Source of the DNA: a virus | DNA: 64,000 nt | IMG/VR virus record: IMGVR_UViG_3300047160_020099 | Location: 32,001 to 96,000 of that record | Strand: one strand, 5' to 3' | Shown here: one piece after another, positions 232 to 61,516 of the stretch | Layout of the letters: every line of letters starts with the position of its first letter | How positions within the stretch are numbered: position 1 is the first letter of the stretch | Notes under the pieces: model-generated | The model's database searches: none | Told to the model about the DNA's origin: nothing | Seen by the model: only the letters and a program-made list of their open reading frames with translations | Translations under genes and position numbers: made by a program

Positions 232-260
232 TAAATTCCAATCACTTTGGTGGCATTCTT
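232..260 (+). promoter_or_regulatory. Candidate phage promoter TAAA-N14-GTGGCATTCTT
   Basis: Same two-part motif and identical spacing recur at 644 and 45080, each in an intergenic gap. Confidence 0.5.
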
Positions 261-13563: not shown

Positions 13564-13575
13564 CCAGGAGGCACC

Positions 13576-39697: not shown

Positions 39698-41104
39698 ATG
39701 CCTTTCGAGTACCCAACTGACCAGCGTGACAACCTGAATGTCTACGCGAGCCTGATAGCCAGCTTCTGGACCACGCTATTCGGCAACGTCGATAACGTGG
39801 TGGACCTGCTGCGCACCTACAAGCTGTCCGAGCGGCAGCTGGCCGGCCAGATGCAGGAGCTGCAAGACACCGTTGGTCGGCAGACTTGTCCCGTCCACCA
39901 CACTCAGGACTGGTACGAGCTTACGCTGCTCCTGTCTACTCGGCAGGCTGGACCCATACCCGGTAGTGTCAGTTACGTTTTGCCGGCAGTTTTACAGAAC
40001 TGCCTACAGGTCACCAACGCCATCACAACCCCTTCCGCAGCCTGGCACAATGGCGTCTCGATGACGATCGACCCGGTCAACCACCTCATCAACTTCGCCG
40101 CCGATCCATTCAACGACCCGAATGTAGTACCTGTACCTGTTCACGATTCCACAGGCACGGTCATCGATACAGCGCTGACGCTGTGGCTCTTCAAGGCGAA
40201 GCTCGACTGGCAGTATCTCTACGAGCAATTCGGTTACGTGGTTGGCGTCGGACAAGACATGGCAAGCACCTACGCCCTCAAGACCTTGCTCAACGCCGTC
40301 TATGACGCCTACACCGCGGGCAGTACCTACGACGCTGTAAGCCGGCTGTTAACAGCACTCACGGACATACCACTCGCGGTCGGCAACGAGACTGTACAGG
40401 CGATCACGCAAGACGCCACCAACTTGCTCGTTATAACCGACCAAACTGTGTATAAGTTCTCGCCAGACGCAACGGCAGTTGTACTGCCTGGGCAACAGCT
40501 CAACCGCAACGATCCGCTCACCGACGCCTTGCAGATCATCGAGCCGACAGCTGGGGTCATCCCGCCGATAATCTCGCAGCTCTCCCTCGGCCCTGGCTTC
40601 CTGCTCGTCGATATTTCGAACGAGCTGCTGTTCAAAAATGCCTCGGTCCCCCTGAACGTGCAGACGGGCGTGAGTGGCTACACAAAGCTGACCTGGCAGT
40701 TGGGCGGCTTTACCACCGACGTGACGACGTTCTTCAACGACCTGCATTCAAGAGGTGTGGCGGCTGGTGCCACGCTCGCCAATTACCTGGATACGCGGAC
40801 GGTACCCGTCGGACAACCAACCGCTGCTGATCTGCCTACCGGTATCAACCCTCTTCAGTTCCTGGTGCAGAACGTCCTTCGCAACAACTGTCTGTTCGTG
40901 TATCTGAAGGTAGACCAGTTTGGCCCCAAGGCACTTGGCACCGGTCTGGCCAGCTTGTTGCGACAGGTGGTGCCGCCACACATGACCGTGATCGTCTACG
41001 CCGAGGTCGTCCAGGCTACTGAGGCCGTTACAATGAACGGTGTTGGCAGTCTGACCAACCCTGGCTATGCTGAGAGCTATTCGCTCTATACCACACCCGG
41101 TTAA
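39698..41104 (+). CDS. Putative baseplate wedge or peripheral protein
   Basis: SFWT..F, YEQFGY.VG, NAVYDA...G, L.A....P patterns; position between J-like and fibre genes. Confidence 0.65.
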   Translation: MPFEYPTDQRDNLNVYASLIASFWTTLFGNVDNVVDLLRTYKLSERQLAGQMQELQDTVGRQTCPVHHTQDWYELTLLLSTRQAGPIPGSVSYVLPAVLQNCLQVTNAITTPSAAWHNGVSMTIDPVNHLINFAADPFNDPNVVPVPVHDSTGTVIDTALTLWLFKAKLDWQYLYEQFGYVVGVGQDMASTYALKTLLNAVYDAYTAGSTYDAVSRLLTALTDIPLAVGNETVQAITQDATNLLVITDQTVYKFSPDATAVVLPGQQLNRNDPLTDALQIIEPTAGVIPPIISQLSLGPGFLLVDISNELLFKNASVPLNVQTGVSGYTKLTWQLGGFTTDVTTFFNDLHSRGVAAGATLANYLDTRTVPVGQPTAADLPTGINPLQFLVQNVLRNNCLFVYLKVDQFGPKALGTGLASLLRQVVPPHMTVIVYAEVVQATEAVTMNGVGSLTNPGYAESYSLYTTPG

Positions 41105-41114
41105 GGAGCCAAAT

Positions 41115-41249
41115 ATGCCTCATGTGCTCATTGCGGCTGTCTTGTTGCTGGTCGTGCTGGCAGTTGCAGGCTCGCGCGACAAGGAGTACGAGGGCAAGCC
41201 AGTCATCCTGCCGTTCAAGCGACCCGACAGGAAGGGTAATTCGGCATGA
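41115..41249 (+). CDS. Small single-pass membrane protein (44 aa)
   Basis: TAAGGAG RBS; hydrophobic N-half; ATGA overlap with next gene. Confidence 0.6.
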   Translation: MPHVLIAAVLLLVVLAVAGSRDKEYEGKPVILPFKRPDRKGNSA

Positions 41250-41893
41250 CGCCTCTCAAGAAACGCTGGCGACGCCTGGAGAAGCGAGTACCAGGGCTGT
41301 ACGTCAATCCGGATATCTGTCATGGGCGGTATCAGATCTACCGGATTGACGAGGCTACCGGCCACTGGGACTTCTTGTTCTCCAAAGAGAACCTGGTCCT
41401 GTACACCTGGGGCTACCTTGCCTGCCAGTGCATTGGCCGTGGTAATCCAGCCTACGCTGTGGCAGCCGCTTACCTGGAGTACATGAACGTCGTTACAGCG
41501 GGCACCGTGGTAACGCCGCCTACCTACGACCGCTCGGCCGGCCTATCCTATTTCAGCGGCTTGCCAGTCAACAAGGATTATCTGCGTGTGCCGCTCGTTG
41601 GACTGCCAACGATTGACATTGCTCCTGGCTATGAGCCGTACTTCGTCTCTGGCTCAACCGGCAACCGTGCAACATTCGTTGCACAAAGCACCGGTACTGT
41701 GGGAGTGAACGGCCAACCTTACTCGGCGGCTGCGTTGTCCACAGTCTATGGTGTCACGCTTGTTGCTACACCAGTGCAGAACACACCTGCCGACGACATC
41801 ATCCTGAGTCGTGGGTATTTCAATACTAACGACCAGCAGTTGAAGCAGGACGGCAGCCAGATCGGCGTCCGCTGGAAGATCAGTTTCCAATGA
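41246..41893 (+). CDS. Putative baseplate or tail-fibre attachment protein
   Basis: NLVL..., DYLRVPL, K....QIGVRW.I.F C-terminal pattern; precedes the fibre gene. Confidence 0.6.
41814..41827. repeat. Dispersed palindrome variant GGTATTTCAATACT
   Basis: One mismatch; inside a CDS. Confidence 0.6.
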
Positions 41894-41906
41894 GCAGGGA
41901 TGCGTT

Positions 41907-43319
41907 GTGACACGCTGGAATAGCTCAAATTGCCCGACGCCGGGGCCGGTCACCGACCATACTCCTACCACACCGTCGGCCATACCACCCTGTCCGGAGT
42001 CTTTTACCGGCACCAGTGTTGGCACAGCTGGGCCACGTGGTCAACGCGGTGCTCCTGGTACCGTTGGGCCGCGTGGACCAAGAGGAGTAGGTGGTCAGGT
42101 CGGCCCACAAGGCACTACAGGGGCAACAGGCGCAACAGGTCCACAAGGGCCTTCCGGCGGGCCACAAGGGCCACAAGGAGCAACTGGGCCACAGGGCCCG
42201 CAAGGGGCACGAGGTGCCACCGGTGCGACAGGCCCGCAAGGGCCACAAGGGGTCCCCGGACCACAGGGACCACAAGGTCCGCAGGGTGTTGCCGGGCCAC
42301 AAGGACCATACGGGCCACAAGGCGCTACTGGGCCTGTTGGTGGCTCGGGTAGGCCTGGCAGAGCTGGTCCAGCAGGGCCACGCGGACCGCGCGGACCACA
42401 CGGTCCTGGCGGACCACAAGGGCCACGAGGTGCCACAGGGCCACAAGGCCCGCAAGGTTTCCAGGGTCCCCAAGGTCCGCCCGGCACCTACACAGCTGGT
42501 AACGGCATCAGCATTGTGGGCAGCGTGATCTCAGTGGCTCCGACCATTCCGCAGGCCACCACTGTCAGCGTTGCTGATACAGGTACCAATACCACGCCCA
42601 CAGTCGCTACGCTGAACCACTCGACGTCCAACACGCCGGCCGATGGTCTTGGCTTACTTATGAAGGCCATGGTCGATACAAGTACAACAGCTAGTCAGGA
42701 AGTTGGTCAGCTGGAAATGTCGTGGGCAACCGTGGCTCATGCCTCACGTAAAGCCCAGGCAGTATGTCGGCTTCAAGATGCAGCTGGCGCCCGTGAGATC
42801 TGGCGAGGTAAAGCTGACGGAGCTAATCCAAACATCGGCTTCCTCGGAGCCACGCCATCAGCAGCGTTGGCTTCGCCCGATATGGGTACGCTCGCCACGA
42901 CGTTCGGTCTGGCGTCTGGCACGCCGACATTCAATGCCGTGAACCTTACTAATACGGCAAGCGCTGGAATACCAACTACCGGATCTGCGGCCTCGGGCAA
43001 CGTCAAATACAGCACAGGGACCATAACAGCCAACGGGATTGTGCAAGGCACTGCTACTCCCGTGACCCACGACAACGAAACGGTAACAATCCCGAACTCA
43101 AGTAACACGGCAGTCATCTTGCCGTCGGCTGCAGGTGGACAGCGTATTACCATCATCAACTCCAGTAACACCTTCAGCGTGGCGGTTTTTCCAGCCTCCG
43201 GTGAAACGATCGGTGGCGGGGTGGCCAACGCTGCGTTTACACTAGGGCTAAGCACCAAGATGATGTTCTGCGCTGTAAGCTCTACACACTGGACGGGACT
43301 AGGATTCGACATCAGTTGA
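41907..43319 (+). CDS. Collagen-like tail fibre protein
   Basis: About 50 Gly-X-Y triplets (~42030-42485), then YTAGNGISI and a beta-rich C-domain. Confidence 0.85.
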
Positions 43320-43334
43320 GAAAACGAGGAAGCC

Positions 43335-43796
43335 ATGCGAGGCGAATATACAGTATCGGTTGCACTTACCGGCGTGGGACCCCCGGCCACCATTCCAGCA
43401 ACGCTGCTTTTGCTCAAAACACCATCAGCTGCAATAGTTGAGGTGCTGGAAGCCTGGATCCAGTCCGAAGACGGTATTGCTCAGCAGATATCTGGGGCTC
43501 TATCCAGAGTTGCTAGTCCTGGCTCGCCAGCTGGCTCGACAGTTACGCCCGAGAAGATGGAGCCCGGCGATCAGGCTAGTGGTTGTACTGTGATCGTTAA
43601 TGTCGAACCTACTGGCAGCTATGACGGCGTTCCTGTTGACTGGCAAGGGGCACCAGCAACCTCTGGCTATCTGTTCAGTGAACCGGTTGGAATGGGCGCC
43701 TTCGCAGCTCCGAGCACCGGCATCGGGCTGAGGATCGAAGAGATCACAACTGCTGGCAATTTCATCGTCGGGCTGCGCTGGGTCGAACACGGATGA
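43335..43796 (+). CDS. Hypothetical, probably structural protein
   Basis: GAGGA RBS; beta-rich. Confidence 0.7.
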   Translation: MRGEYTVSVALTGVGPPATIPATLLLLKTPSAAIVEVLEAWIQSEDGIAQQISGALSRVASPGSPAGSTVTPEKMEPGDQASGCTVIVNVEPTGSYDGVPVDWQGAPATSGYLFSEPVGMGAFAAPSTGIGLRIEEITTAGNFIVGLRWVEHG

Positions 43797-43809
43797 GTAT
43801 TCCGATACT
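43796..43809. repeat. Dispersed palindrome variant AGTATTCCGATACT
   Basis: One mismatch; overlaps a TGA stop. Confidence 0.65.
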
Positions 43810-43877
43810 CGTCTTGTCGGTCGTCCGCCAGGCAGCTACACTGGCTGACGACTGGCATTCCTTCAACGGAGGTGAGC

Positions 43878-44306
43878 ATGAATGGTAAGGTTGAGGTGAA
43901 GATGGTTGGTGCCAACCAGCTTCCAGACTTCCTGCTGAAGCTGTTCAATCAGCTCGGCTGCAACCTCGGGCCGGAGGCTCAGGGCAATGGGGAAGACGCC
44001 GTGCCCGTTGAGCCAGATCCGTATGCCGGTCTGTGTAACTTCGTGGCCGACCAGATGTACTCCATCGACTGCGGCAAGCAGAAGTTCGATGAGAGGCTGA
44101 CAGCTCTGGCCGACAGTCTCGACAAGCATCCGCAGACACAGACCGAGGTTCATCGGCTTCGCGAGGCTGTGTCGCACAAGCTGGATGAGCTCCGCGATAC
44201 GATGCTGCTTCTCGACCCGGTGCTGAAGAACCTGGCCAACGAACAGAAGGCCCAGCAGACAGCCGCGGAGAAGGAAGCCTTCCTCCAGGAAGCCATCAGC
44301 AGCTGA
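43878..44306 (+). CDS. Hypothetical coiled-coil protein
   Basis: GGAGGTGA RBS; followed by a terminator. Confidence 0.75.
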   Translation: MNGKVEVKMVGANQLPDFLLKLFNQLGCNLGPEAQGNGEDAVPVEPDPYAGLCNFVADQMYSIDCGKQKFDERLTALADSLDKHPQTQTEVHRLREAVSHKLDELRDTMLLLDPVLKNLANEQKAQQTAAEKEAFLQEAISS

Positions 44307-44328
44307 ACAAGCTGGTACTTTGCTGACG

Positions 44329-44359
44329 AAGGCCGGGCAGAAGCCCGGCCTTTTTGTTT
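44329..44359 (+). terminator. Rho-independent terminator
   Basis: GGCCGGGC-AGAA-GCCCGGCC followed by TTTTTGTTT. Confidence 0.85.
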
Positions 44360-44383
44360 GGTAGAATCGGGCTGGAGGCACAC

Positions 44384-44818
44384 ATGGCGACACACAGCAT
44401 AACCGTCACACGCTCCATCCCGGTCCAAACCGTAACGTTCGCTCCACCAGGTACGCCTGGTGTAGTGCAGAACTACACACTGAGCTTTGCCCAGATCTAC
44501 ACGGCGAGCGACGGCGTCGGCATTGACGACAACATCTTCTTGATGAATCAGCGGCCTGTAGACCCCACCAATCTCGGCGGCCCGCAGACTGCCGATTACG
44601 TGGGCGTCTGCTCTCCATATGATCTGGCAACCTGGTCGGTAAACGCTCCGGCGCCCGGCCAGACTCTCTTCCGTGTCCTCCAGGTGAACCGTTCTTTCCA
44701 GAATCAGAACGACGCCGACGTTGAGTGGACAGTTGTCAAGGAAGACGTGCAGCTGTTAATCAACGTGCTCAAGGCGAACGACAACCTCAACAACGTCGAG
44801 GTCTTTACTGCTTCGTGA
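44384..44818 (+). CDS. Hypothetical protein
   Basis: GGAGG RBS; TGGTAGAAT extended -10-like element at 44359-44367. Confidence 0.75.
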   Translation: MATHSITVTRSIPVQTVTFAPPGTPGVVQNYTLSFAQIYTASDGVGIDDNIFLMNQRPVDPTNLGGPQTADYVGVCSPYDLATWSVNAPAPGQTLFRVLQVNRSFQNQNDADVEWTVVKEDVQLLINVLKANDNLNNVEVFTAS

Positions 44819-44821
44819 GCC

Positions 44822-45082
44822 ATGCTCATCGACGATTCCACAATCAACGCACTGTTACAACGGCCAGAAATGGTCAGGGAGTTCCCTTTCCTGCTGGCCA
44901 CTACCGAGAATGCAAAGGTATGTTGCGGGCGTAGCCGTCGCGTTGCGAACTACCCAATCATCAAGCAGACGATTGCCGGCATGCCCACGGAGCGTAAGGA
45001 GCTCTTCAAGAAGATGCTGGGCGTGCTTTCTTGCCGAGTTGTCTTCCAGGTCAACAACTCCATCTCCGATATCACGATCTAA
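44822..45082 (+). CDS. Hypothetical protein
   Basis: Packed behind the previous gene; typical codon usage. Confidence 0.7.
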   Translation: MLIDDSTINALLQRPEMVREFPFLLATTENAKVCCGRSRRVANYPIIKQTIAGMPTERKELFKKMLGVLSCRVVFQVNNSISDITI

Positions 45083-45108
45083 AATAGTCGTAAAAGTGCG
45101 ACATTATT
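45080..45108 (+). promoter_or_regulatory. Candidate promoter TAAA-N14-GCGACATTATT for the structured RNA
   Basis: Same spacing as 232 and 644; predicted start near 45113 coincides with the first helix. Confidence 0.5.
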
Positions 45109-45112
45109 GTAT

Positions 45113-45778
45113 GCAGGATCACTACTTCTCGGCCTTTTCGGCCGGGAAGGAATGGCCTGCGACAGGAATCAGCTGTTGGCTTTGGAGTACATCTTGAGCA
45201 CCATTGAGATGTCGGCGAAAGCCGGCCTCCGAGGCCTCCCCTCGCTGATTCTTGTGGCCCCGGCGTGCTAACACCACGCCGGGGTCCCAAACGGTGTGTT
45301 GTGCGCAAGCTGACCGGCCTAACATCACCTACAAAAGCCGGCCTACACGAGGGCCGGTTCGACGTGCGAAAGCACGGACTGTGGCCTGTCCCCTGAAAGA
45401 CACGGGGCAATGGTGATACAACACACCGAACAGGGGCGGGCGCACGCCCGCGTCGCCGCCCCTGCCACTGTCCCTGTGAGCGAACACAGGGGGACAGGCC
45501 GCCAGCGGTCGAGCGACCGGCCAATCGACCGCTGGCACCTTCTAACATCGCCCGGCTTTCTGTCCTTCGCTGGGCGGTGTTGCCAGCGGCCGGCCCCGGT
45601 CAAGTGTACGGCCGCTGGCATTTCAGCTGCCTCCTGCCGGGAGCCTGTCCGCCCCGGCCCACATCGAAATCCTTCACGCCGCTTTGTTAAGCGGGTGGAT
45701 GATTGTGCCGGCAGCCCCCTGCCCGGCCTACAATCCTCTTACCCACTTCTCAAGCTCGTGATAGGATTACCGATGTGG
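45113..45778 (+). ncRNA. Candidate large, highly structured non-coding RNA (~670 nt), family unassigned
   Basis: Longest gene-free gap in the window; more than 15 nested or adjacent helices with G-U pairs, two GAAA tetraloops and complementary loops. Confidence 0.75.
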
Positions 45779-45834
45779 ATTTCATCCATCTTTGTCTTGT
45801 AGGACGACCTTTGCTTTACATATTGGGGAACCCA

Positions 45835-46113
45835 ATGCTCCGTTTCATCGAAGATAAGTGCGTCCAGACACCACAGAACATGTTGGTGATTGTAGAGGCC
45901 GACACCCCGCCCGAATTGACCAACCGTCAGGCACGCGACGCTGTGCTGGTCTGGGCCAGGCGACAGGGCTTTCCGGCCCGAGGGATCAGTGGCATCCCAC
46001 AGACCTATCCTGTTGACGCGAAGGGTGAGACCAACCCCGAGGTCGTGATGGGCAAGGTGCCTACCGCTGCACATCGAGCTGACTATCAACTGAGCGCCGG
46101 GATTGTCGTGTGA
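45835..46113 (+). CDS. Hypothetical protein (start refined from track 45703)
   Basis: GGGGA RBS inside a small ATTGGG/CCCAAT hairpin; GTGA overlap with next gene. Confidence 0.7.
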   Translation: MLRFIEDKCVQTPQNMLVIVEADTPPELTNRQARDAVLVWARRQGFPARGISGIPQTYPVDAKGETNPEVVMGKVPTAAHRADYQLSAGIVV

Positions 46114-46640
46114 AGATACCTTTCACCATCCATGCCGTAAGCGAGGTAACACACACGCTTACGCCAGCAAAGCGGCACCGGCTGCTCCGGCTGCTGGGTA
46201 GAACGGAAGAACGGCTCGACGACGGCAATATCGAGCTCACACCAGCACAAGCCCTGGTACTGTGGACAGCAGACGCCTTGATGGTGCGGACGGCGTTGCC
46301 GCTGGACCAGCAAGACTTCCTCCTCGAAGAACTCCACCGGACCATAGCAGACATCGGCCGACGCATCTGGCTGACGCTGGAAAAGTTCGAAGAGAAGGAC
46401 GAGCGTGGTGACGTCATCACGGCTCACCTGATGCTCTGGGACTCCCGGTTCGTGTCCGTCAGTGGCAAGAGCGGCTACCTCGATCTGCAAAAAGCTGTCT
46501 GGTTGACGAAGCTGGACAGAGCGCCGCTGTGGACCCAGTCTTGTGACCTGACGACCCTCTTCATAAGCTACCGGGCACGGATGGCCAAGCTGCATCCCGG
46601 CAGGAGAGATACCGATGCCGAGCGAATACCAGCTGCTTGA
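46110..46640 (+). CDS. Hypothetical protein
   Basis: Coupled to both neighbours. Confidence 0.7.
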   Translation: MKIPFTIHAVSEVTHTLTPAKRHRLLRLLGRTEERLDDGNIELTPAQALVLWTADALMVRTALPLDQQDFLLEELHRTIADIGRRIWLTLEKFEEKDERGDVITAHLMLWDSRFVSVSGKSGYLDLQKAVWLTKLDRAPLWTQSCDLTTLFISYRARMAKLHPGRRDTDAERIPAA

Positions 46641-47346
46641 GAATCGTCTGGCGACCTTCTGGCGCGATCCTCAGATGTTTGGCTTCAACCTCCTGGTATT
46701 GTTCATGGACGTCTACGGAGCCGAAGGCCTCAACTGGATGCCTGAGACTATCGAGATGGAGATCCGCGACGACAGTGGCGTCGATCTGCCGGAAGCCAAC
46801 TTCGACAAGCTGCTGACAGCCATTTCTCTTCTTGTCACTGACAACTTCTTCGTGAGCCCGACAGACTTCACACGAGCGTGTGTGGTCCTGTCAGGCCATG
46901 TCGTGAACCCCGGTTCTCTGATCCTGCCCGACTGTGCCGATCTGGCCTGGGGCCTCACCGAAGGCATGATGATCAATCCACCTGACGAAGATAACGAGGC
47001 ACCCTTCTCGAAAGAGATTGTTGCTTACGTAGGTGCGTGTCTGAATGACGAAGGTATTCTGAACCCTCCTGATATCCTGCGTATCGGCCTCCGTGACAAA
47101 GATTTGGCTGACAACGCACGGTACAGCTTTTCCGACGACCCGGAGATGATGGCGGCGATTTCTGGCTTCGAAGAAGACAAGACGTCGTCCATCAACTCTC
47201 TGGTTCTCAACCGGCTCAAGGACCTGTTCGCGCAACTCCAGTTGTTGCCCCTCAAGAACGGTCAGGCCGTTGCTGTAGCACGGAAGATGATGGCCGGGCT
47301 GGCCCATCAACCCGCTAGCGGCTCACCGCTAAATTCACCCGTTTGA
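46615..47346 (+). CDS. Hypothetical acidic protein
   Basis: AGGAG RBS; 243 aa. Confidence 0.78.
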   Translation: MPSEYQLLENRLATFWRDPQMFGFNLLVLFMDVYGAEGLNWMPETIEMEIRDDSGVDLPEANFDKLLTAISLLVTDNFFVSPTDFTRACVVLSGHVVNPGSLILPDCADLAWGLTEGMMINPPDEDNEAPFSKEIVAYVGACLNDEGILNPPDILRIGLRDKDLADNARYSFSDDPEMMAAISGFEEDKTSSINSLVLNRLKDLFAQLQLLPLKNGQAVAVARKMMAGLAHQPASGSPLNSPV

Positions 47347-47359
47347 GTATTGGAATACA
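47346..47359. repeat. Dispersed palindrome variant AGTATTGGAATACA
   Basis: One mismatch; overlaps a TGA stop, upstream of the AAA ATPase. Confidence 0.65.
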
Positions 47360-47411
47360 TGCAGTTGTCGGTACCACGGGGTGCCGGCGTATCGCTGCGC
47401 GCGGAGATCCG

Positions 47412-50099
47412 ATGAAGACATCGTTCGTTGATGACCTGGTTTACAAGTTCAAGTCCGGCTTCCCGGTTACTGCCGTCAATACGACAGAGACAGACCGCTG
47501 TATCCAGGAGATCAAGACTGCCGGCTGGTTGATGGGTGAAGGTTGCAAGGTCACACTCACGCCAGCTGACCGCAACCTGTTCAAGACCCTGTTCAACACG
47601 TATACGGAATACAGCTGCCCGCTGACACCTTCTGGCGAGTTGACTGCGGACATCAAGAAGCTGGTCGCTCTCATGCGACGGCTTTGCCACGAGAAGTCCG
47701 AGGCCGCGGCAGACGTTGACCGACTGCTCGATACGGTCGGCTACCCGGTCATTACCTGGAGCCATACCGGGGGCTTCGATAACGGCGCCGGCGACGTCGA
47801 GCTGGACCAGGCGCTGGTCATGGCGGCCCAACCGTATGACAGCAAGGCACGCGACAAGAACCCGCTGCCGCGCTTTTGCATCCTTGTGTACAAGAACGCG
47901 AACGAGTTTCTGGACCCGCCCGGCCCGGAGTGTGCCCGTTTCCGCTCAGCACTACACACCATCTTCTGCGGCAACCGGCTCGTTGACGGCAGCATCCGGC
48001 GGCTGGTTATCATGCTCCAGCCAGACTGGACGCCGCACACACAGATCGCTCACTGCGTCAACTTCGTGGAGTTCGAGCCACCGAACGAGGAGCAGCTCTC
48101 CCACGAAGTCACGTATGTCGAGGAGTCGTTGCAGTCTTCCAAGCGGGACGTGGTGAAGACCTGCCCGACCGAGCTGCGTAAGCCCATCATTACGGCACTG
48201 CGAGGTTTCACCCAGCACGAAGCCGTGAATGCGCTGGCCTACTGCATCGTCAAGCATCGTGGCTTCTGCCCAGACATGGTACCCACCTTGCACGGGCTGA
48301 AAGCCGAGACCTTGAAGCGGGACGAGGTCCTGGAGTACATCGACGCCGAGTACCTGGCCACCACGGATCAGATCGGCGGCTACGAGAACTACCTGGAATT
48401 CATCAGCGAGTGCCAGGAGTGCTACACGGACGAGGCGGCCAAGGCTGGACTAAAGAAGCCCAAGGGCGTGCTGCTCCTGGGCCTTCCTGGATGCGTAGCT
48501 GAAGACACGATGGTCTCTTACCGTCGGGGTAAACGAACCGGCAACAGAAGTTTGCCGATCAACGTCTTTTGCGACAAGGTGAATGGCACCGAACATCATC
48601 ATGCTGGCGTGAAATGGAAGCCAGGATTGGATACGTATTTGCAATCCTTCAACCCGGAGACTGGAAGGATCTTCTATAACCTAGTCAAAGGTGTTTACAA
48701 GAAGGGGCGTAAACATTGCATACGTATCATCACCGATAACGCTGGCTCAGTCACCCTGACCGATGACCATCCAATTATGACGGCTGAGATTATTTTCAAA
48801 GCCGCCGGTGAACTACGAGTTGGTGATAAGCTTCTGGTGCGTGGCAATATGCACCCCACTAAGTTGGCCAATAAGACGGCTCCAAAACATAAACGCCGGG
48901 TCACGGTTGAAACTCTTAAATATCACCCTCGCGGCTGGCCTCATCCGGTAAAAGAGCCAACGACCGGTAAGGTTTACACCTATCTGCGGCAGCACCGAGC
49001 CAGGCTGGTGCTAGAAGCACATATGAACGGATTGGCCTATGAAGAATTCATCCGAATTCTGCAGAAAGAGCCGACAACGGCTTCAGCATTGAAGTATCTC
49101 GAAGATGGTTTGGAGGTTCATCATCAGAACGAAGATCCAACCGACGACCGTCTGGAAAATCTGCTGGTACTGACAAAGCCGGCTCATACGAAGTTGCACT
49201 GTGATGAAAGTCGTTTCAACGTTGCGTATACAACTGAAGCGACTATTACCGGGATCGAAGCTGTCGGTTACCGCGAGACATATGACGTTTCCATGGAAGA
49301 TCCGTACGCCAACTTCGTGGTTAATGATGGGATCATAGCCCATAACACTGGGAAAAGTATGGTGGGCATGGCCACCGCCCGCATCATGAGCCTGCCGCTT
49401 GTGAAGTATGACTTCGGCAGTGTATTCGGTGGCATCGTCGGCCAGAGCGAAAGCACCCAGCGTCGCGTGTTGAAGCGGGTGACAGCTCTCGGCCCGTGCG
49501 TCCTGCTGATCGACGAGGCGGATAAGGCCTTTGCCGGGATGGACCAGACCATCGGTGATTCCGGCACCGGCCAGCGTGTCTTCGGGCGGCTCCTTACATG
49601 GATGGCCACCGAGAACACGGATGCGTTCATCGTGATGACCATGAACCGGCTGAAGGGTGTCCCCGTCGAGATGCTGCGTGCCGGCCGGCTCGACGCCACT
49701 TTCTACACCGAGTTCCCCAGTCCACCAGAGCGGCAAGAGATCCTGGCCATTCACATGAGGAAGAATGGCGTGGATCCCAACTGCTTCGACCGCAACGACT
49801 GGAAGACCCTGGTCAATATCACGGAAGACTTTGCCGGCGCCGAGTTGGAACAGCTCGTCATCAAGGCCGTACGCACTGCCTGGAAGGCAACCAAACTGGT
49901 GCAGCCGAAGATAGCCCACCTGGAGGCCGCGCGGGTCTCTGTGAACCCGGTCGCGCACCTTGACAGAGAGGGCATGCAGAAGATCCTCGAATTTTGCCAG
50001 GACAAGGCCACGCCTGTCAGCAAGAAGAAGCGTATCGCCAAGTCGCAGGTTGGTCGGCTGCGAAGCAGCATCCTGGTTGACAACCCGGAGAACAACTAA
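47412..50099 (+). CDS. Ycf46-like AAA+ ATPase with an intein in the Walker A motif
   Basis: IGGYEN, PKGVLLLGLPG/TGKS, VGQSE, LLIDEADK, RAGRLD; GGAG RBS before ATG 47412. Confidence 0.9.
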   Translation: MKTSFVDDLVYKFKSGFPVTAVNTTETDRCIQEIKTAGWLMGEGCKVTLTPADRNLFKTLFNTYTEYSCPLTPSGELTADIKKLVALMRRLCHEKSEAAADVDRLLDTVGYPVITWSHTGGFDNGAGDVELDQALVMAAQPYDSKARDKNPLPRFCILVYKNANEFLDPPGPECARFRSALHTIFCGNRLVDGSIRRLVIMLQPDWTPHTQIAHCVNFVEFEPPNEEQLSHEVTYVEESLQSSKRDVVKTCPTELRKPIITALRGFTQHEAVNALAYCIVKHRGFCPDMVPTLHGLKAETLKRDEVLEYIDAEYLATTDQIGGYENYLEFISECQECYTDEAAKAGLKKPKGVLLLGLPGCVAEDTMVSYRRGKRTGNRSLPINVFCDKVNGTEHHHAGVKWKPGLDTYLQSFNPETGRIFYNLVKGVYKKGRKHCIRIITDNAGSVTLTDDHPIMTAEIIFKAAGELRVGDKLLVRGNMHPTKLANKTAPKHKRRVTVETLKYHPRGWPHPVKEPTTGKVYTYLRQHRARLVLEAHMNGLAYEEFIRILQKEPTTASALKYLEDGLEVHHQNEDPTDDRLENLLVLTKPAHTKLHCDESRFNVAYTTEATITGIEAVGYRETYDVSMEDPYANFVVNDGIIAHNTGKSMVGMATARIMSLPLVKYDFGSVFGGIVGQSESTQRRVLKRVTALGPCVLLIDEADKAFAGMDQTIGDSGTGQRVFGRLLTWMATENTDAFIVMTMNRLKGVPVEMLRAGRLDATFYTEFPSPPERQEILAIHMRKNGVDPNCFDRNDWKTLVNITEDFAGAELEQLVIKAVRTAWKATKLVQPKIAHLEAARVSVNPVAHLDREGMQKILEFCQDKATPVSKKKRIAKSQVGRLRSSILVDNPENN
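48492..49346 (+). mobile_element. Intein (285 aa) carrying an HNH endonuclease
   Basis: Starts CVAEDT; block B LTDDHPI; ends TYDVSM...NFVVNDGIIAHN with Thr at +1; internal VHHQNEDPTDDRLENL; lower GC. Confidence 0.93.
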
Positions 50100-50479
50100 T
50101 GAGCCTTCAGGGCTTTTTCGTCACCGCTCACAAGCAGCTGGCCGTAGCATTTGACAGGCTCGACGGGGCGCTCTCGCACCTCTTCCAGCCTGTCATTACA
50201 AGCGGGCCACTGTTTGAACTGGTCAGGGACACTCACGCGACTGATTGGGTGTGCCAGCATTACCTTGTCGAGGACATCACACCCGACACGGCGGGCAGTG
50301 ACACAATCTACACTGTTACCGTTGAACTGCAGTGCAAAGGAAAGCAAGACCCCAACAAACCGGATGTTGGCAGTCAGCTGATCGCTTTGGTTGAGATCCC
50401 AGTCACCAAGAATGGCCTATGCGAGCTGGAAGTCATTTCCTGCACCAAATACACAGGAGACGGAACAGAACTGGAATGA
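50099..50479 (+). CDS. Hypothetical protein
   Basis: TAATG and ATGA coupling on both sides. Confidence 0.65.
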   Translation: MSLQGFFVTAHKQLAVAFDRLDGALSHLFQPVITSGPLFELVRDTHATDWVCQHYLVEDITPDTAGSDTIYTVTVELQCKGKQDPNKPDVGSQLIALVEIPVTKNGLCELEVISCTKYTGDGTELE

Positions 50480-50982
50480 GACTGCCACTGACCCTGACGA
50501 ACGACGAAAGCCTGGCAGCGGATCGTGTATGCGGTCCCTGCCAGGCTTGTTGTCATACCGTTGCCATCGACGACGAGGCCCTTCAAAAGGCCGAAAGGGA
50601 GCGGTGCTCTAACCTCTGTGCCACTGGCTGCAGTATTTACCCTGACAGGCCCAAAACTTGCAGAGAGTATCGTTGTGCGTGGTTGTCAGGTGCTTTGCAA
50701 GGTGATGAACGGCGGCGGCCTGACCAGCTCGGTCTGATGTTCCACTGGTCCGTCAACCACTGGTTCGGGCTCTTATTGATGTGCTGGGAGGTTCGACCTT
50801 TTGCCAGCGAGGAACCGGCGGCTAGCTATCTCTTGAAGAACCTATCACAGAAGCATTTGATCTGTATGTTCCTCAATGATCGCGGCGACGAGCCAGGAAC
50901 CAGAAAGTTCATTGGTCCGCCGCGTCGCATGGCTCAAGTTGCCGAGTTCGCGGAGAAGCATAAGGGACAGAAACCGGTTTGA
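50476..50982 (+). CDS. YkgJ-like CxxCxxCC zinc- or iron-chelating protein
   Basis: CGPCQACC...C..L...GCSIYPDRPKTCREYRCAWL. Confidence 0.82.
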   Translation: MRLPLTLTNDESLAADRVCGPCQACCHTVAIDDEALQKAERERCSNLCATGCSIYPDRPKTCREYRCAWLSGALQGDERRRPDQLGLMFHWSVNHWFGLLLMCWEVRPFASEEPAASYLLKNLSQKHLICMFLNDRGDEPGTRKFIGPPRRMAQVAEFAEKHKGQKPV

Positions 50983-51006
50983 AGTAGTGGATTTTTCGAG
51001 GAGCTA

Positions 51007-52113
51007 ATGTCCAATCCAACTGACGAACTTCGGGATATCGCTTCGGTAACCCGAGAACTGAACAGGAACGTTCTCTTCACACATGTGTCTGTGCATCGCT
51101 GGCGCGGGCATAAGGAAGTGGAAGCGGCCACCATCAAGGTCGAGGGCGAGACAGCGACTGAAACACTGGTGACCAAACCGCGGTGGAAGCTGCTCGACGA
51201 CGAGTGGCAACGTAAGTTCTCCAGGGTGGAGACCCTGCTACGCAACATCGTTGCCAAGGCCTCGCCGGCTTTCCCAATCCCCGGCGTCTATGTCATCCCG
51301 CGGCTGCGAGCCCGGCAGTTGTTCGAAGCGGTAGACGAGGTTGCGAAGGAGCAGTTCTACCCGCTGGCGGAGGAGTTTGCCGCTACGTGGCCGTCTTACG
51401 TGGCCAACATCCGGCAAACAGCCACAGAGGCTCAGTGGGCGCAGATCAACAAAGCCTTGCCGACCACAGCCACTGAGCTGCGTAAGAAGTTCCGTGTCAC
51501 GAAGCACATCATCCCGCTGGCCGGCGGCGCCGGTCTCAGCGTGGTAACACTTCGTGACATCTTCACGGACCTTGAGGCAGACCTGTGCAGCAGGCTGCCG
51601 CTGTCCGAGCACAACAAGGAGATCATCACCGCCACATTGCAGACCGCCATGGGCAAACTGCTGCAACACACAGGTGGTGAGTTGACTGGGGGCGAAGCGG
51701 ACAGCTACGCCGTCGAGATCGAGCAGGCGACACGGCAGTTCATCCAGGACACTGCTTCTGTGATTGCTGGCAGCGTTACTCAGGAGCTAAAGGACGCCGT
51801 CGATAATCTGGCCGGCCGGCTGGAAGAACACGGTGTGGTCCGCGACAGCACCATCGAGCTCGTCAAGGCAGCCTTCGAGAAGTACAAGTCGTTCAGCTTC
51901 GCAGCCAACCCGGCCACGCTGGCTCGCATGCACCAGGTCGAGCACCAACTGCTGCACCTATCGCACAAAGAGCTCAACCAGGACAACCGGCACGGCGACG
52001 GCTCGATTGCGAAGGGACTGTCGGACGCACTGAAGGCCTTGCGAGCCCAGGCAGAACAGGACTTCGCGGGTTCGGCAGCGTTTGGCCGCCGGCTCCGCAC
52101 GATCGAGGTTTGA
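51007..52113 (+). CDS. DUF3150-like helical protein
   Basis: V..WRG N-terminus, F.IPGVYVIP, P....LR.KF pattern; GAGGAG RBS; context with AAA ATPase and DUF1257. Confidence 0.65.
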   Translation: MSNPTDELRDIASVTRELNRNVLFTHVSVHRWRGHKEVEAATIKVEGETATETLVTKPRWKLLDDEWQRKFSRVETLLRNIVAKASPAFPIPGVYVIPRLRARQLFEAVDEVAKEQFYPLAEEFAATWPSYVANIRQTATEAQWAQINKALPTTATELRKKFRVTKHIIPLAGGAGLSVVTLRDIFTDLEADLCSRLPLSEHNKEIITATLQTAMGKLLQHTGGELTGGEADSYAVEIEQATRQFIQDTASVIAGSVTQELKDAVDNLAGRLEEHGVVRDSTIELVKAAFEKYKSFSFAANPATLARMHQVEHQLLHLSHKELNQDNRHGDGSIAKGLSDALKALRAQAEQDFAGSAAFGRRLRTIEV

Positions 52114-52126
52114 CAAAGAGGAGCCG

Positions 52127-52558
52127 ATGAATCGAGAGAGCCGTTACGATCCTTATTCCCTCTGGCTTGTCTTGCAGAGCCAACCAGACAAGACGCTGGT
52201 TCACAGCTTCGACCACGGAGACAAGGCCATGGAATTCGCCAAAACATATGACCCGCAGACCGGACCGTTCAAGCTGGCCCGGACTGCGCTAGAACAAGTA
52301 GCGCCGGTACTGGCCGCTGCCGCGCAGGTAGCGATCGGCATCATACGGTCCGAGAAGCACGCCTCGCGTAAGCTTCATGGTGCGGCCAACTTCCTCGAAA
52401 CGTCCCTGCGTTACGCAGCGATGGACCGTGACCTGCCGGAGCTTTACAAGGCGACACGGCGGCAGTTCATGTACGGGTCGCAGGTGCTGGCCGACAGGGT
52501 GCAGGCTGCTACTGATGCCCTGCGGCCCTATCTCGATCTGAAGCTGGTGATGCGGTGA
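52127..52558 (+). CDS. Hypothetical protein
   Basis: GAGGAG RBS before ATG 52127. Confidence 0.7.
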   Translation: MNRESRYDPYSLWLVLQSQPDKTLVHSFDHGDKAMEFAKTYDPQTGPFKLARTALEQVAPVLAAAAQVAIGIIRSEKHASRKLHGAANFLETSLRYAAMDRDLPELYKATRRQFMYGSQVLADRVQAATDALRPYLDLKLVMR

Positions 52559-52803
52559 GGAGTAGAGGACCTCGGCGTATAAATCTAGGGCATCTCAAGG
52601 AGGTTTACTACGCTGTATGGCTAGATACCTTGTCTTTCGAGCTTGAGCATATCGGTGAAGATCTTGCCTACTTGCTTGGCGCGATGCTCCAGGGCGAATG
52701 CTGTGCATGGCCCGAGCACAGGCCGCTTGTGAAACTTCTTCGGAAGCGGTTTCCGAAGACGCACATCGTGTGGGACTACATCAGCATAGACGAGGAGGCA
52801 TAA
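52555..52803 (+). CDS. Hypothetical protein
   Basis: GTGA overlap; fills the gap. Confidence 0.6.
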   Translation: MRSRGPRRINLGHLKEVYYAVWLDTLSFELEHIGEDLAYLLGAMLQGECCAWPEHRPLVKLLRKRFPKTHIVWDYISIDEEA

Positions 52804-52805
52804 CC

Positions 52806-53249
52806 TTGTCCCATATTACCAAGATGGAAATCGAAGTCACCGATCTTGATTCGCTCAAGGAGGCTTGCGAAGAGATCGGCCTGGAATTCAGAGAAGGTCA
52901 GGAGACCTACAAGTGGTTCGGTGCTTCCGTTGGCGACACGCCCATACCGGAAGGCGTTGATGAATCGCAGCTGGGACACTGTGCGCACGCGCTGCGTGTC
53001 CGCGGCAAGCCCGGTGCCTATGAGATCGGCGTGGTACCCAACGCTACCAGGACGGGTTACCACCTCTTGTGGGACTTCTGGGCCGGCGGTTATGGCCTTC
53101 GCGACGCTATCGGCGACGAGGGCAGCAAGCTTCTCCAGAAGTACACCGAGAAGAAGGTGCTCAAGGAAACGCGGAAGGCCGGCTTCCGGCTGGCCAACAC
53201 CGAGAGGAATTTCGCTGATGGCTCTATCAAGCTCACGCTTCGTCGCTGA
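52806..53249 (+). CDS. DUF1257 (Ycf35-like) protein, TTG start
   Basis: GAGGAGG RBS; SHITK.E.EV.DLD.L..AC..IG...YEIGVV...Y.L.WDFW...L.Q.Y...DGSIKL. Confidence 0.8.
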   Translation: MSHITKMEIEVTDLDSLKEACEEIGLEFREGQETYKWFGASVGDTPIPEGVDESQLGHCAHALRVRGKPGAYEIGVVPNATRTGYHLLWDFWAGGYGLRDAIGDEGSKLLQKYTEKKVLKETRKAGFRLANTERNFADGSIKLTLRR

Positions 53250-53271
53250 GCCTGAACGAGATCCATGGCGA

Positions 53272-53709
53272 ATGGCCATGCAGCTGGCTGTCATACGCGG
53301 GCAACTACCGGCCTTTAAGCCGGCAGATCTTGAACCCGGCGTCAAGTTCTTCGTGCTCATGCTTGAACAGGCCGGCTGTGAGACCATGTATAGCTGTGAA
53401 GGCCATCCAGGCGGCTTCTATATCGTGTTCCGCGCGCCGAACTACAGGCGAGCATTCGACATCGATCGCTGTGACTCGGTATTTACCACTGAGCTGGACC
53501 ACCGTGAGCTGGTTTTCAGGCTCTCGCTCATGGTAGCTGAACACGGGGATACTTCGTGGGATGATGACAAACGATGCCGACGGCTGAGCTATCTGGCGAA
53601 ACTATGGGAAAAGCAACTTGGCCGTCTCAAAGCTCTGGACGTACTGGAGGATAAATGCAGGAGATCACTATCACCATTGATCGCCTCGGCAAGCCAACCA
53701 TCGAGGTGA
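53272..53709 (+). CDS. Hypothetical protein with T..SCEGH motif (start uncertain)
   Basis: Fills the gap between DUF1257- and DUF2997-like genes. Confidence 0.6.
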   Translation: MAMQLAVIRGQLPAFKPADLEPGVKFFVLMLEQAGCETMYSCEGHPGGFYIVFRAPNYRRAFDIDRCDSVFTTELDHRELVFRLSLMVAEHGDTSWDDDKRCRRLSYLAKLWEKQLGRLKALDVLEDKCRRSLSPLIASASQPSR

Positions 53710-53852
53710 AAGGTGTCAAGGGACGACAGTGCCTGAAGGTAACCGAAGGACTGGAACAGTCGCTCGGTGGTAAGGTTGTAAGCCGCGACGCAACTGCTGA
53801 CATGTTGCCTCTCGGTAGCACCACCACAACGACCGCCAAAGTCACGCACTGA
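53655..53852 (+). CDS. DUF2997 protein
   Basis: GGAGG RBS; EITITI...G...IEV.G..G..C...T..LEQ.LG. Confidence 0.82.
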   Translation: MQEITITIDRLGKPTIEVKGVKGRQCLKVTEGLEQSLGGKVVSRDATADMLPLGSTTTTTAKVTH

Positions 53853-54115
53853 TGGACGTCACGCTGTTCATCGGCCGTGACGGCAGTTTGACATTCCTGT
53901 ACGACGACATCCTTATGCAAGCCCTTCGTGAGCTGGGTCCTGCCAGCACGCGAAGGGCTTCTAACGTTGAGCCCACTACAGACGGTAAACACTGGCTCGC
54001 CGACATGTCGCCCACAGCCGGCCGACCAGTAACTCTTGGTCCTTTCGAGACCCGCCAGGAAGCTCTGGATGCCGAGGCAAATTGGCTCCTGAACTTTCTG
54101 GTGGGCACCATATGA
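53852..54115 (+). CDS. Conserved hypothetical protein usually adjacent to DUF2997
   Basis: DG....LY.D....LG....RRAS.VEP..DG..W.AD.SP..G...LGPF..R.EAL.AE..WL. Confidence 0.78.
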   Translation: MDVTLFIGRDGSLTFLYDDILMQALRELGPASTRRASNVEPTTDGKHWLADMSPTAGRPVTLGPFETRQEALDAEANWLLNFLVGTI

Positions 54116-54120
54116 CGGGT

Positions 54121-54134
54121 AGTATTCGAATACT
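54121..54134. repeat. Dispersed 14-bp palindrome AGTATTCGAATACT
   Basis: Perfect palindrome; intergenic. Confidence 0.7.
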
Positions 54135-54152
54135 CCTACACAGGATGCAACA

Positions 54153-54503
54153 ATGCCACGCGCAAAGCGCACTACCGTTACTCATTCCGTCAGCAAGAGC
54201 TGCGACGGCGATGGCGATCCATTTGAGCTCGGAATGCCGAGTGAAGAGACGACTGTGGACCTGATCCGTTACCGGGTCATTGCCGAGCTCCACGTCGATC
54301 AGAAGATCGCTGAGCTGACCGCGATCCTGGCAATGGCCGTCGGCACGGGGCCGGCGGCTACAGCAACGCCCAAGACCAGTAAGTGGGCCTGGAACTACGC
54401 CACGTTTGCTGACGCACAGGCCGCTCAACGGCGACTCGCCGATCTGGCAGCGGCCAACAGCAACATCCGGGTCAAAAACCTGACCATTCAGGAGGTAGCG
54501 TGA
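54153..54503 (+). CDS. Hypothetical protein
   Basis: AGGA RBS; coupled to next gene. Confidence 0.7.
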   Translation: MPRAKRTTVTHSVSKSCDGDGDPFELGMPSEETTVDLIRYRVIAELHVDQKIAELTAILAMAVGTGPAATATPKTSKWAWNYATFADAQAAQRRLADLAAANSNIRVKNLTIQEVA

Positions 54504-54862
54504 ACTGGCAAAAGTTGATCGACGAGTTCGAGCCCGTTACCCTGGAGCGTGGTGACCTCACTGTCACCTTCGAATACTGGGATGGCGGGCTCGACAGGAA
54601 CTACTTCAACCCAGCTGAGCCGAAGGACGACAAGCCGACGCTTCACCTTGCCGTCTACCGGGATACGCCGAACGGTTTCGAAATGGAAGCCGCATTTGCC
54701 ACACGGCTTTTGATCAGCGACAGCTTCGAGACGCTGGTCGCGCATCTCGGCGCCATCTTGCCACTGGTCACGCACCAGGCGGATTACCAGATCCTCCTGC
54801 GTAAGGCTCCGTTCGTGTTCGCGGACCGTTCACCAGGCGTTGTGAGCCCGGCCTATGCCTAA
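54500..54862 (+). CDS. Hypothetical protein
   Basis: AGGAGGT RBS; GTG start. Confidence 0.75.
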   Translation: MNWQKLIDEFEPVTLERGDLTVTFEYWDGGLDRNYFNPAEPKDDKPTLHLAVYRDTPNGFEMEAAFATRLLISDSFETLVAHLGAILPLVTHQADYQILLRKAPFVFADRSPGVVSPAYA

Positions 54863-55073
54863 CCTCTATGAGATCACGGTCCGTTTCAGAGACGGAGAGC
54901 TATACGGCCGTACTAGTGTACAGGTCTCGGCAACTGACGAACATGACGCCAGGGAAAAAGCGCTCGATGAACTGGCTGAAACGCAGCCCTGGGATGAAGT
55001 GACGGATGTGTGGGTGACCAAGCTCAACGACCCGCCGCCATCGCCTGACGGCGAGCCTCCGCCAGCTGCCTGA
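54855..55073 (+). CDS. Small acidic hypothetical protein
   Basis: Overlaps previous stop; V.ATDE.DAREKA pattern common in phage small proteins. Confidence 0.65.
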   Translation: MPNLYEITVRFRDGELYGRTSVQVSATDEHDAREKALDELAETQPWDEVTDVWVTKLNDPPPSPDGEPPPAA

Positions 55074-61337: not shown

Positions 61338-61505
61338 ATGTCCAAGCGTGATTCTGACTCTCTGGTTGTCAACCTCGCCGGTCCGGTTGTCGTGAGCGGT
61401 TTGATCATTGCCGCTAGCGGTGGTGGTTTCATGCCGCTTCTGGGCATGCTGTTCGGTCTCTATCTTAGCAGCAACGCCCTCAAGGAGGTTGATAGGCATA
61501 AATAA
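61338..61505 (+). CDS. Small membrane protein
   Basis: GAGGT RBS; two hydrophobic stretches. Confidence 0.65.
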   Translation: MSKRDSDSLVVNLAGPVVVSGLIIAASGGGFMPLLGMLFGLYLSSNALKEVDRHK

Positions 61506-61516
61506 GGAGGTAACGG

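Follow-up and report, generated by a model that had tools for sequence, protein, structure and literature searches.

A strongly folded non-coding gap with a conserved 3′ hairpin in an uncultured soil phage

A non-coding gap with extreme folding

The IMG/VR virus record IMGVR_UViG_3300047160_020099 comprises 161,936 base pairs (bp) from an uncultured soil phage, and is classed as linear and about 78% complete. The window analysed here is the stretch of 64,000 nucleotides (nt) that spans bases 32001-96000 of this record, and coordinates refer to the window unless the genome is named. Within it, a 752-nt gap (45083-45834) separates the stop codon of an 86-amino-acid (aa) gene at 45082 from the ATG at 45835 of a 92-aa gene. 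The order of the locus is 154-aa gene, 86-aa gene, gap, 92-aa gene and, further downstream, an AAA ATPase gene, and all genes adjoining the gap lie on the plus strand. By codon usage the gap is non-coding, and no other stretch of the 162-kb record is as structured. The gap begins with a promoter-like motif and carries a long hairpin near its 3′ end, and both of these elements are conserved at the same place in related loci, whereas the sequence between them varies from one phage to the next.

Coding status was assessed with a codon log-odds model trained on the genome's own 69 open reading frames (ORFs) with 300 codons or more. Per codon, the genes on either side of the gap score between +0.17 and +0.29, with +0.21 for the 86-aa gene and +0.17 for the 92-aa gene, whereas every ORF in the gap scores negatively (−0.05 to −0.35). 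GC content by codon position is likewise flat in the gap ORFs, with the exception of a 54-codon ORF at 45107-45271 that is weighed below.

An initial annotation, made from the sequence alone, had described the gap as paired almost from end to end, and this pairing is real. The plus strand of 45083-45836 (754 nt) folds at −385.9 kcal/mol versus −287.3 ± 7.8 kcal/mol for dinucleotide shuffles, a comparison that the annotation had itself proposed, and this corresponds to a z score of −12.6. When minimum free energy (MFE) is regressed on GC content across 231 non-overlapping 700-nt windows of the genome, the gap is an extreme outlier (z −4.5), and the only comparable 700-nt window is one that overlaps the gap. 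In a 300-nt scan of the genome's first 114 kb, window positions 45.0-45.6 kb again rank with the best-folding regions. The ViennaRNA MFE fold of 45105-45835 pairs 67% of the bases (157 G-C, 68 A-U and 20 G-U pairs) and recovers nearly all of the helices listed initially, with only 45324-329/45412-417 missing. The parts of the gap and the two genes that flank it are, in order:

44822-45082, plus strand: upstream 86-aa gene, whose TAA stop codon shares bases with the TAAA of the promoter-like motif
45080-45117, plus strand: promoter-like motif, TAAA-N14-GCGACATTATTGT-ATGCAGG, with the motif proper at 45080-45104 and a likely start near 45111-45117
45113-45160, plus strand: H1, 5′-terminal hairpin in which GCAGG/CCUGC (45113-117/45156-160) closes a 10-bp stem (45125-134/45140-149) with the loop UUUUC
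45162-45255, plus strand: H2, branched domain with a 12-bp closing helix (45162-173/45244-255), two inner stems and a GAAA tetraloop at 45217-45220; inner helices in the MFE fold are 45178-187/45227-236, 45189-197/45204-212 and CGGC-GAAA-GCCG
45256-45286, plus strand: H3, perfect 12-bp stem (45256-267/45275-286) with the loop CUAACAC
45292-45428, plus strand: H4, branched domain with a 12-bp closing helix (45292-303/45417-428), a GAAA tetraloop at 45368-45371 and a junction with CCUAACAUC; inner helices in the MFE fold are 45336-344/45351-359 and CGUGC-GAAA-GCACG
45431-45658, plus strand: H5-H10, six near-perfect hairpins in series, with MFE helices 45431-439/45456-464, 45468-475/45490-497, 45501-512/45525-536, 45544-556/45569-581, 45582-592/45609-619 and 45636-641/45653-658
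45659-45778, plus strand: conserved long irregular hairpin of 48 bp, with GCGGGUG and UCCUCUUACCC strands and the 3′ strand AGGAUU
45779-45834, plus strand: AU-rich tail that contains two weak hairpins, CCUUUGCUUUACAUAUUGG (45808-45826, conserved) and the Shine-Dalgarno sequence of the 92-aa gene
45835-46113, plus strand: downstream 92-aa gene with a GGGGA Shine-Dalgarno sequence, heading an operon that runs into the AAA+ ATPase module

The ATGCAGG that follows the motif forms the beginning of the first helix. Hairpins H7 and H9 have the stem GCCAGCGGNCG in common, and the words CUGUCC and GGGACAG in H5-H10 permit alternative pairings.

No known RNA family accounts for this fold. The initial annotation had seen no hallmark of transfer-messenger RNA (tmRNA), RNase P or self-splicing introns, and had suggested a search of Rfam; the results agree with it. 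The covariance models of Rfam 15, whose families include GOLLD, ROOL, HEARO, OLE, raiA, group I and group II introns, RNase P, tmRNA and riboswitches, give no match at gathering score in the 64-kb window or in the loci of the six relatives described below. At E ≤ 10 on 44800-46100 they return hairpin-level noise alone, in the form of microRNA and small RNA models with scores of 12-24 bits where the thresholds are 39-92. A run of ARAGORN likewise shows no tRNA or tmRNA, and a blastn search of the gap in distant mode has no match among 50,697 GenBank phages.

Other stretches of the genome also fold well. Plus-strand 300-nt windows whose folds are 3-4 standard deviations more stable than the GC-adjusted norm of the genome occur at genome positions 13100-14400, 104400-104800 and 106600-107100, and at window positions 61400-61800. 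The structured stretch at genome 106.7-108.0 kb sits in a 1.25-kb gap of a crude gene call. These stretches may be further structured RNAs or clusters of terminators.

Promoter-like motif and 3′ hairpin in syntenic relatives

Relatives of the locus were found by searching exhaustively with HMMER for homologs of the upstream 154-aa protein; this family has more than 100 representatives, and a profile search added closer members. Six distinct syntenic metagenome loci were obtained, and all of them keep the order 131-149-aa gene, 88-108-aa gene, gap, 90-94-aa gene. The 86-aa gene (53% identical to its L003 homolog) and the 92-aa gene, whose product has no Pfam or PHROG match, each have a counterpart in every relative, and the downstream AAA ATPase is also present in those loci long enough to reach that far. 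The gaps between the flanking genes measure 537 nt (L023), 489 nt (L005), 421 nt (L004), 206 nt (L006, the same as L007), 174 nt (L024, the same as L025) and, with an extra gene included, 624 nt (L026, the same as L027). A more distant locus, L029, keeps the promoter-like motif alone. Searches of IMG/VR for related loci found none, whether the query was one of four flanking or core proteins or the alignment of the 154-aa family, and this alignment found none among metagenome contigs either.

The promoter-like motif that the initial annotation had placed just before the first helix is indeed present, with one copy ending at 45104. In the form TAAA-N13-15-GYGRCAT it occurs seven times in the 162 kb, each time on the plus strand, where by our estimate about one occurrence would be expected on both strands together. 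The copies lie at window positions 232-256, 644-668 and 45080-45104, and at genome positions 13597, 14273, 30087 and 30617, ahead of the window. All seven run on as (T/A)(A/C)TT... and then (A/G)TG. The six copies outside the gap are found about 30-80 nt 5′ of a Shine-Dalgarno sequence and start codon, and several of them come right after terminator-like hairpins. Conservation extends to the relatives: the motif stands at the equivalent site, over the upstream stop codon, in L023, L004, L005, L006, L024 and L029, with a variant in L026, and the consensus across the six syntenic relatives is TAAA-N14-GNGNCAT. Measured against the sigma-28 (FliA) criterion of a TAAA −35 element, a spacer of about 15 nt and a GCCGATAA-like −10 element, the sequence TAAA-N14-G(C/T)G(A/G)CAT(T/A)AT resembles such a promoter, but its −10 element differs. 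The motif is likely to represent a phage-specific promoter class.

The second conserved element is a long irregular hairpin of 83-120 nt, located directly 5′ of the 92-aa-type gene in the target phage and in all six relatives. Each of the seven hairpins folds alone into one unbranched shape, with z scores of −8.85 in the target and −4.1 to −10.9 in the relatives. The order of parts is the same throughout: an outer helix, a short helix, CAG/CUG (AAG/CUU in the target), GGGUG.../...CACCC and a distal stem-loop. Certain strands are conserved in sequence, namely GCGGGUG, UCCUCUUMACCC and (U)AGGAU. The outer helix, in contrast, has a different sequence in every relative and retains its pairing, as seen in the variants UCACG/CGUGA, CCACAC/GUGUGG, CACACCG/CGGUGUG, ACCAGCU/AGCUGGU, CACCAC/GUGGUG and CUUCCGA/UCGGAAG. 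In L006, a change of UAGGAU to UACGAU is matched by a change of its partner from CCUA to CGUA.

Covariation was counted formally on a structure-blind MAFFT alignment (A11) of three sequences, the target, L023 and L005. RNAalifold recovers the hairpin from this alignment with 40 pairs. Pairing is possible in 80.8% of the alignment cells versus 37-52% when the partners are slid, and 13 of the 40 pairs are changed on both sides versus 1-5 in the slid controls. At most 1 in 500 column shuffles attains the observed values of pairing and covariation. The covariation term of RNAalifold is slightly unfavourable (+2.44) owing to register shifts, and three sequences are few for such a count. MAFFT alignments of all seven hairpins are structurally wrong, and structure-coded MAFFT is likewise of no use.

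Two covariance models were built, one (R1) from a single sequence and one (R2) from L026 and L023 only, with the target excluded. R2 finds L005 at 55.5 bits (32.3 on the minus strand) and has the target hairpin as its best match when 5 kb are searched with filters off (15.5 bits, E 0.015; 6.0 bits on the minus strand). L004 is a weak match on either strand, and neither L006 nor L024 is recovered. A search of the genome with R2 gives no second copy of the hairpin, and its conserved strands, used as patterns, have no match in IMG/VR or in the genome contig collection. A pattern scan for the 3′ motif has no match in IMG/VR and 15 among metagenome contigs, each of them due to chance or to an unrelated AT-rich gene. 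As judged by comparison of the related sequences, 45659-45778 is a conserved structured RNA in the generic sense, with its pairing kept through compensatory changes.

Two further features suggest what such a hairpin might do. The predicted double-stranded RNA (dsRNA) extends over 36-48 bp with interruptions of 1-3 nt in six of the seven sequences, and over 31 bp in L024, and thus has the length of RNase III substrates (at least 20 bp, about two helical turns, of near-continuous dsRNA). In addition, the hairpin has a U-rich tail (CCUUUGCUUUA(R)...) behind it in the relatives as in the target. L026 carries a canonical terminator right after the conserved hairpin, with a 12-bp stem, a GAAA loop and a U-rich tail (GGUCUUUUCC), and here the hairpin itself follows a real gene; its position between gene and terminator fits a module for 3′ processing or termination. 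The terminator scan found no canonical terminator in L023.

Several observations concern the phage and its lineage more widely. The AAA+ ATPase of the target (918 aa; window 47343-50099) includes an HNH_3 endonuclease segment at residues ~583-624, immediately before the AAA domain, and the corresponding proteins of the relatives have just 600-619 aa, which is consistent with an intein or homing element inserted in the target phage. A 176-aa protein encoded downstream has no counterpart among 5.8 billion proteins, and a 574-aa protein encoded in the tail/baseplate gene region (29564-31288), used as a tblastn query, has no match in the 50,697 GenBank phages. Parts of the stretch (window 44564-45838, in pieces) occur in 21 public soil sequencing runs from 19 studies, no RNA run being among them. 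Contigs from three of the four runs examined are 100% identical to the phage (the fourth gave none), and no variants appear in the covered pieces. By these runs the phage is widespread at low abundance.

A variable slot and its possible meanings

Between the motif and the hairpin lies the body of the target gap, 45113-45658, whose 546 nt make up about 80% of the fold that had been called ornate. When the target gap is compared with the six relatives' gaps by blastn, nothing aligns in target 45125-45640, and the matches form three pieces: the promoter, the GCCUGUCC word with the 5′ half of the hairpin, and the U-rich tail (this last between the target and L023). No homolog of the body is found in the six relatives' gaps, in GenBank phages, in IMG/VR or in the genome collection, and the soil runs give identical copies; the branched domain H2 in particular has no blastn homolog in the relatives' gaps. 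A hairpin with (U)GUGAC or GCGAC after it also opens the sequence in L023 and L004. In the six relatives, the corresponding bodies span 0-320 nt and consist of nothing, of a small gene, or of 240-320 nt of ordinarily structured non-coding sequence with unremarkable folds (z −2.3 in L023, +0.1 in L005 and −0.8 in L004). L026 has a real 92-aa gene in the slot (L026:2733-3011), and the GC content of this gene at third codon positions, 0.97, is as in its neighbouring genes. Because its contents vary in this manner, the interval between promoter and hairpin is a space for variable cargo, and the hyper-structured body is peculiar to the target phage. The slot behaves like a moron-type cargo site, in which content differs between phages.

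We tentatively favour the reading in which the gap gives rise to a long plus-strand untranslated RNA, either an operon leader or a processed non-coding RNA, that ends in the conserved dsRNA hairpin; we regard this as a serious possibility that falls somewhat short of being probable. Transcription of the plus strand would begin at the phage's own sigma-28-like promoter (TAAA-N14-GCGACAT, 45080-45104), and the untranslated RNA would lead the operon that starts with the 92-aa gene at 45835. Such an RNA would consist of a 5′-terminal hairpin, a 546-nt lineage-specific body with two branched domains and seven stable hairpins, and the conserved 120-nt hairpin with its U-rich tract. The conserved hairpin would be the functional core of the family, an element for dsRNA processing, stability or attenuation that may define the 5′ end of the downstream mRNA and govern its translation. 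Either cleavage at the hairpin or a transcription stop at the U-rich tract would free a discrete and very stable RNA of about 670 nt. The body would then be cargo in the variable slot, perhaps serving as a decoy or scaffold, perhaps shielding an untranslated stretch from Rho and nucleases, and perhaps having no role. Across the family, the conserved unit would be a promoter, optional cargo, a long dsRNA hairpin, a U-rich tract and the first gene of the next operon. No described family matches this combination of hairpin and promoter motif, which, from its sequence, is best classed as a structured RNA element of phage leaders or intergenic regions.

In favour of this proposal are the negative codon scores, the extreme folding, the promoter-like motif with its plus-strand copies ahead of genes and its place in the relatives, the shared gene order and the compensatory changes of the conserved hairpin. 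Strand orientation offers some further hints, among them that every neighbouring gene lies on the plus strand. The MFE of the plus strand is better than that of the minus strand by 13-16 kcal/mol, with larger z scores (−10.0 versus −6.2 for the body), and the plus strand presents GAAA tetraloops at 45217-45220 and 45368-45371, with GAAA also found in L005 and L026.

A number of points weigh against the proposal. The helices are mostly perfect Watson-Crick stems, and the minus strand folds nearly as well (z −8.2 for the gap, and the −6.2 just given for the body). The initial annotation had read the many G-U pairs as a mark of selection on a plus-strand RNA, and this argument fails because the minus-strand fold has 19 such pairs to the 20 of the plus strand, so that their numbers are practically equal. 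The plus strand of the conserved hairpin is the more stable in just four of the seven sequences, and R1 and R2 give scores to the minus strand of these hairpins as well, for which reason the models yield no clean multi-sequence alignment. At 15.5 bits, the match of R2 to the target is weak, and L006 and L024 are tied to the family only through synteny, motifs and fold shape. Lacking a homolog, the body has no comparative support for its structure. The terminator scan of the target finds no canonical terminator after 45778, where there are weak hairpins and then CCUUUGCUUUA. Finally, analogy is the sole basis for processing or attenuation by the hairpin.

An alternative that we consider unlikely, yet the strongest of those weighed here, is that the whole transcript of about 670 nt, or the 546-nt body, is a large trans-acting RNA of a new class, carried as non-coding cargo in a moron-like slot behind its own promoter, much as phages carry GOLLD and ROOL. 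Such an RNA might have a defined tertiary architecture and might act as a nuclease-resistant scaffold, as a decoy, or as a multimer whose contacts are made by the GAAA loops, the three CUAACAYC motifs and the complementary words in its loops. Its size and domain layout, with two multi-branch domains closed by 12-bp helices, would suit this role, as would the fact that two of its few tetraloops are GAAA, that all three genome copies of CTAACAYC lie in the gap, and that perfectly complementary words of 11-12 nt are shared between distant hairpins. A promoter-like motif of its own, a stable 3′ hairpin and the lack of an Rfam match point the same way. However, long perfect GC-rich stems and a z score of −10 are unusual for catalytic or scaffold RNAs and are a better fit to stability hairpins, and the slot is variable and may carry a protein gene. 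The initial annotation had proposed a new class of large non-coding RNA or a divergent member of a known one. What stands of that proposal is the non-coding and highly structured nature of the gap, the promoter-like motif ahead of it, the lack of an Rfam match and the 3′ domain, which is conserved with compensatory changes. The ~670 nt as a whole do not form one conserved class of ornate RNA, since the 546-nt body is without a homolog in the six syntenic relatives, in GenBank phages or in IMG/VR.

It is also unlikely that the body is without function, as a set of hairpin modules that were duplicated locally in a tolerant slot and kept as harmless or mildly useful passengers of an untranslated leader. 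The slot ranges from 174 to 752 nt across the relatives with unrelated contents, the relatives' bodies are without significant structure, and internal repeats within the target (GCCAGCGGNCG twice, CUGUCC three times, CCGGCCU four times) suggest duplication. Drift alone, however, would hardly produce a z score of −10 across 546 nt with 67% of bases paired, in what is the single most structured stretch of the genome, and the sequence is unchanged in soil runs from several studies. The distribution of the hairpin words also bears on their origin. All three genome copies of CTAACAYC and both copies of GCCAGCGGNCG lie inside the gap, as do 4 of the 32 copies of CCGGCCT, and this confinement argues against a dispersed family of repetitive extragenic palindromes or miniature inverted-repeat transposable elements, an explanation that was dropped, and for local duplication.

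A DNA-level element seems improbable. Here the gap would serve as a replication origin, as a single-strand initiation site with an activating or priming transcript, or as a landmark between modules that is recognized by a protein. Origins that are activated or primed by a transcript are represented by ColE1 RNA II, T4 ori(uvsY) and the T7 primary origin. Along the record, cumulative GC skew is V-shaped: it declines between about 34 and 78 kb, climbs between 80 and 155 kb and has its minimum as a plateau at 73-90 kb (window ~41000-58000), despite 143 of 151 genes in a crude call having one orientation. The element, at 77.1-77.8 kb of the record, sits inside this plateau, which is compatible with a bidirectional origin nearby. 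Its almost perfect stems, the folding of both strands, the inconsistent strand bias in the stability of the conserved hairpin and the adjoining promoter-like motif all speak for such an element. On the other hand, the skew minimum is a 17-kb plateau rather than a point, and the relatives lack a consistent change of skew sign across the element. The gap is GC-rich and contains no iterons, AT-rich unwinding element or repeat family, and covarying stems, conserved bulges and plus-strand GAAA loops are more typical of RNA. As a separate observation, the skew minimum may mark a replication origin region between the tail and AAA+ modules.

Least plausible is a small protein from the ORF at 45107-45271 (54 codons from a TTG, or 39 from the ATG at 45151), which has a gene-like GC content by codon position (0.59/0.46/0.70), the least negative codon score in the gap (−0.05) and a precedent in the real gene of the L026 slot, but which scores below every flanking gene, starts with a TTG inside the promoter motif and 5′ of the likely transcript start, has poor Shine-Dalgarno spacing to the ATG, has no homolog in the DNA comparison of gaps (the peptide itself was not searched separately), is buried in helices H1 and H2, and explains at most 165 of the 752 nt.

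Three other candidates were dropped. A mimic of CRISPR or anti-CRISPR repeats lacks any repeat-spacer order, a retron or diversity-generating retroelement RNA finds no reverse-transcriptase domain in the nine flanking proteins scanned, and the resemblance to an integron attC-like site consists of chance short motifs only.

Significance and comparison with known systems

If the transcript exists, it would be an unusually large and stable untranslated RNA from a little-known lineage of large soil phages. The promoter, long hairpin and U-rich tail would together constitute a new and testable regulatory motif for this lineage, one that marks a slot in which cargo is swapped. This slot holds protein genes in some phages and what appears to be a structured RNA here, and a non-coding cargo would extend the moron concept to RNAs. 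Practical value will be modest until expression and a phenotype are shown.

Several known systems resemble parts of this arrangement. Like ColE1 RNA II, the target locus has a promoter followed by a highly folded stretch of roughly 550-700 nt that would be untranslated RNA, at a site in a GC-skew minimum plateau. Unlike ColE1, it has no RNA I-like antisense promoter that we could find, and its skew signal is broad and not reproduced in the relatives.

A new ornate RNA class comparable to GOLLD and ROOL (RF01998, RF03087; Weinberg 2017, PMC5737381; Kretsch 2024, bioRxiv 10.1101/2024.12.08.627333) is possible but unproven. As with those RNAs, the gap is roughly 600-800 nt in size, phage-borne and non-coding, with many helices and GNRA loops. 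It differs in giving no match to their covariance models even at E ≤ 10 and in having no tRNA neighbourhood. Furthermore, GOLLD and ROOL are defined by wide covariation, whereas the target body is not conserved even among close syntenic relatives.

HK022 putL and putR, and EAR, are cis-acting antiterminator RNAs at the heads of long operons, and a put RNA has about 70 nt and two stem-loops. The target family is similar in that a conserved, predicted RNA structure stands 3′ of a phage promoter-like motif at the head of a long co-oriented operon. It departs from put in having one long hairpin, at a distance from the promoter that ranges from about 45 to 600 nt.

By analogy, the nearest working counterparts are probably RNase III processing hairpins, with antiterminator or attenuator RNAs less close. 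Such hairpins include the T7 R0.3 and R1.1 sites, which lie behind early promoters or between cistrons, and the lambda N-leader site. The hairpins of the target family, as predicted here from sequence only, are about twice as long (36-48 bp), and in the target an additional 546 nt of structured RNA would precede the hairpin. The family shares with RNase III sites a hairpin that is long and irregular, stacks coaxially and exceeds 20 bp, placed in an untranslated stretch between a promoter or upstream cistron and the next gene, whose pairing is kept while the sequence of its stem drifts and whose internal loops are conserved.

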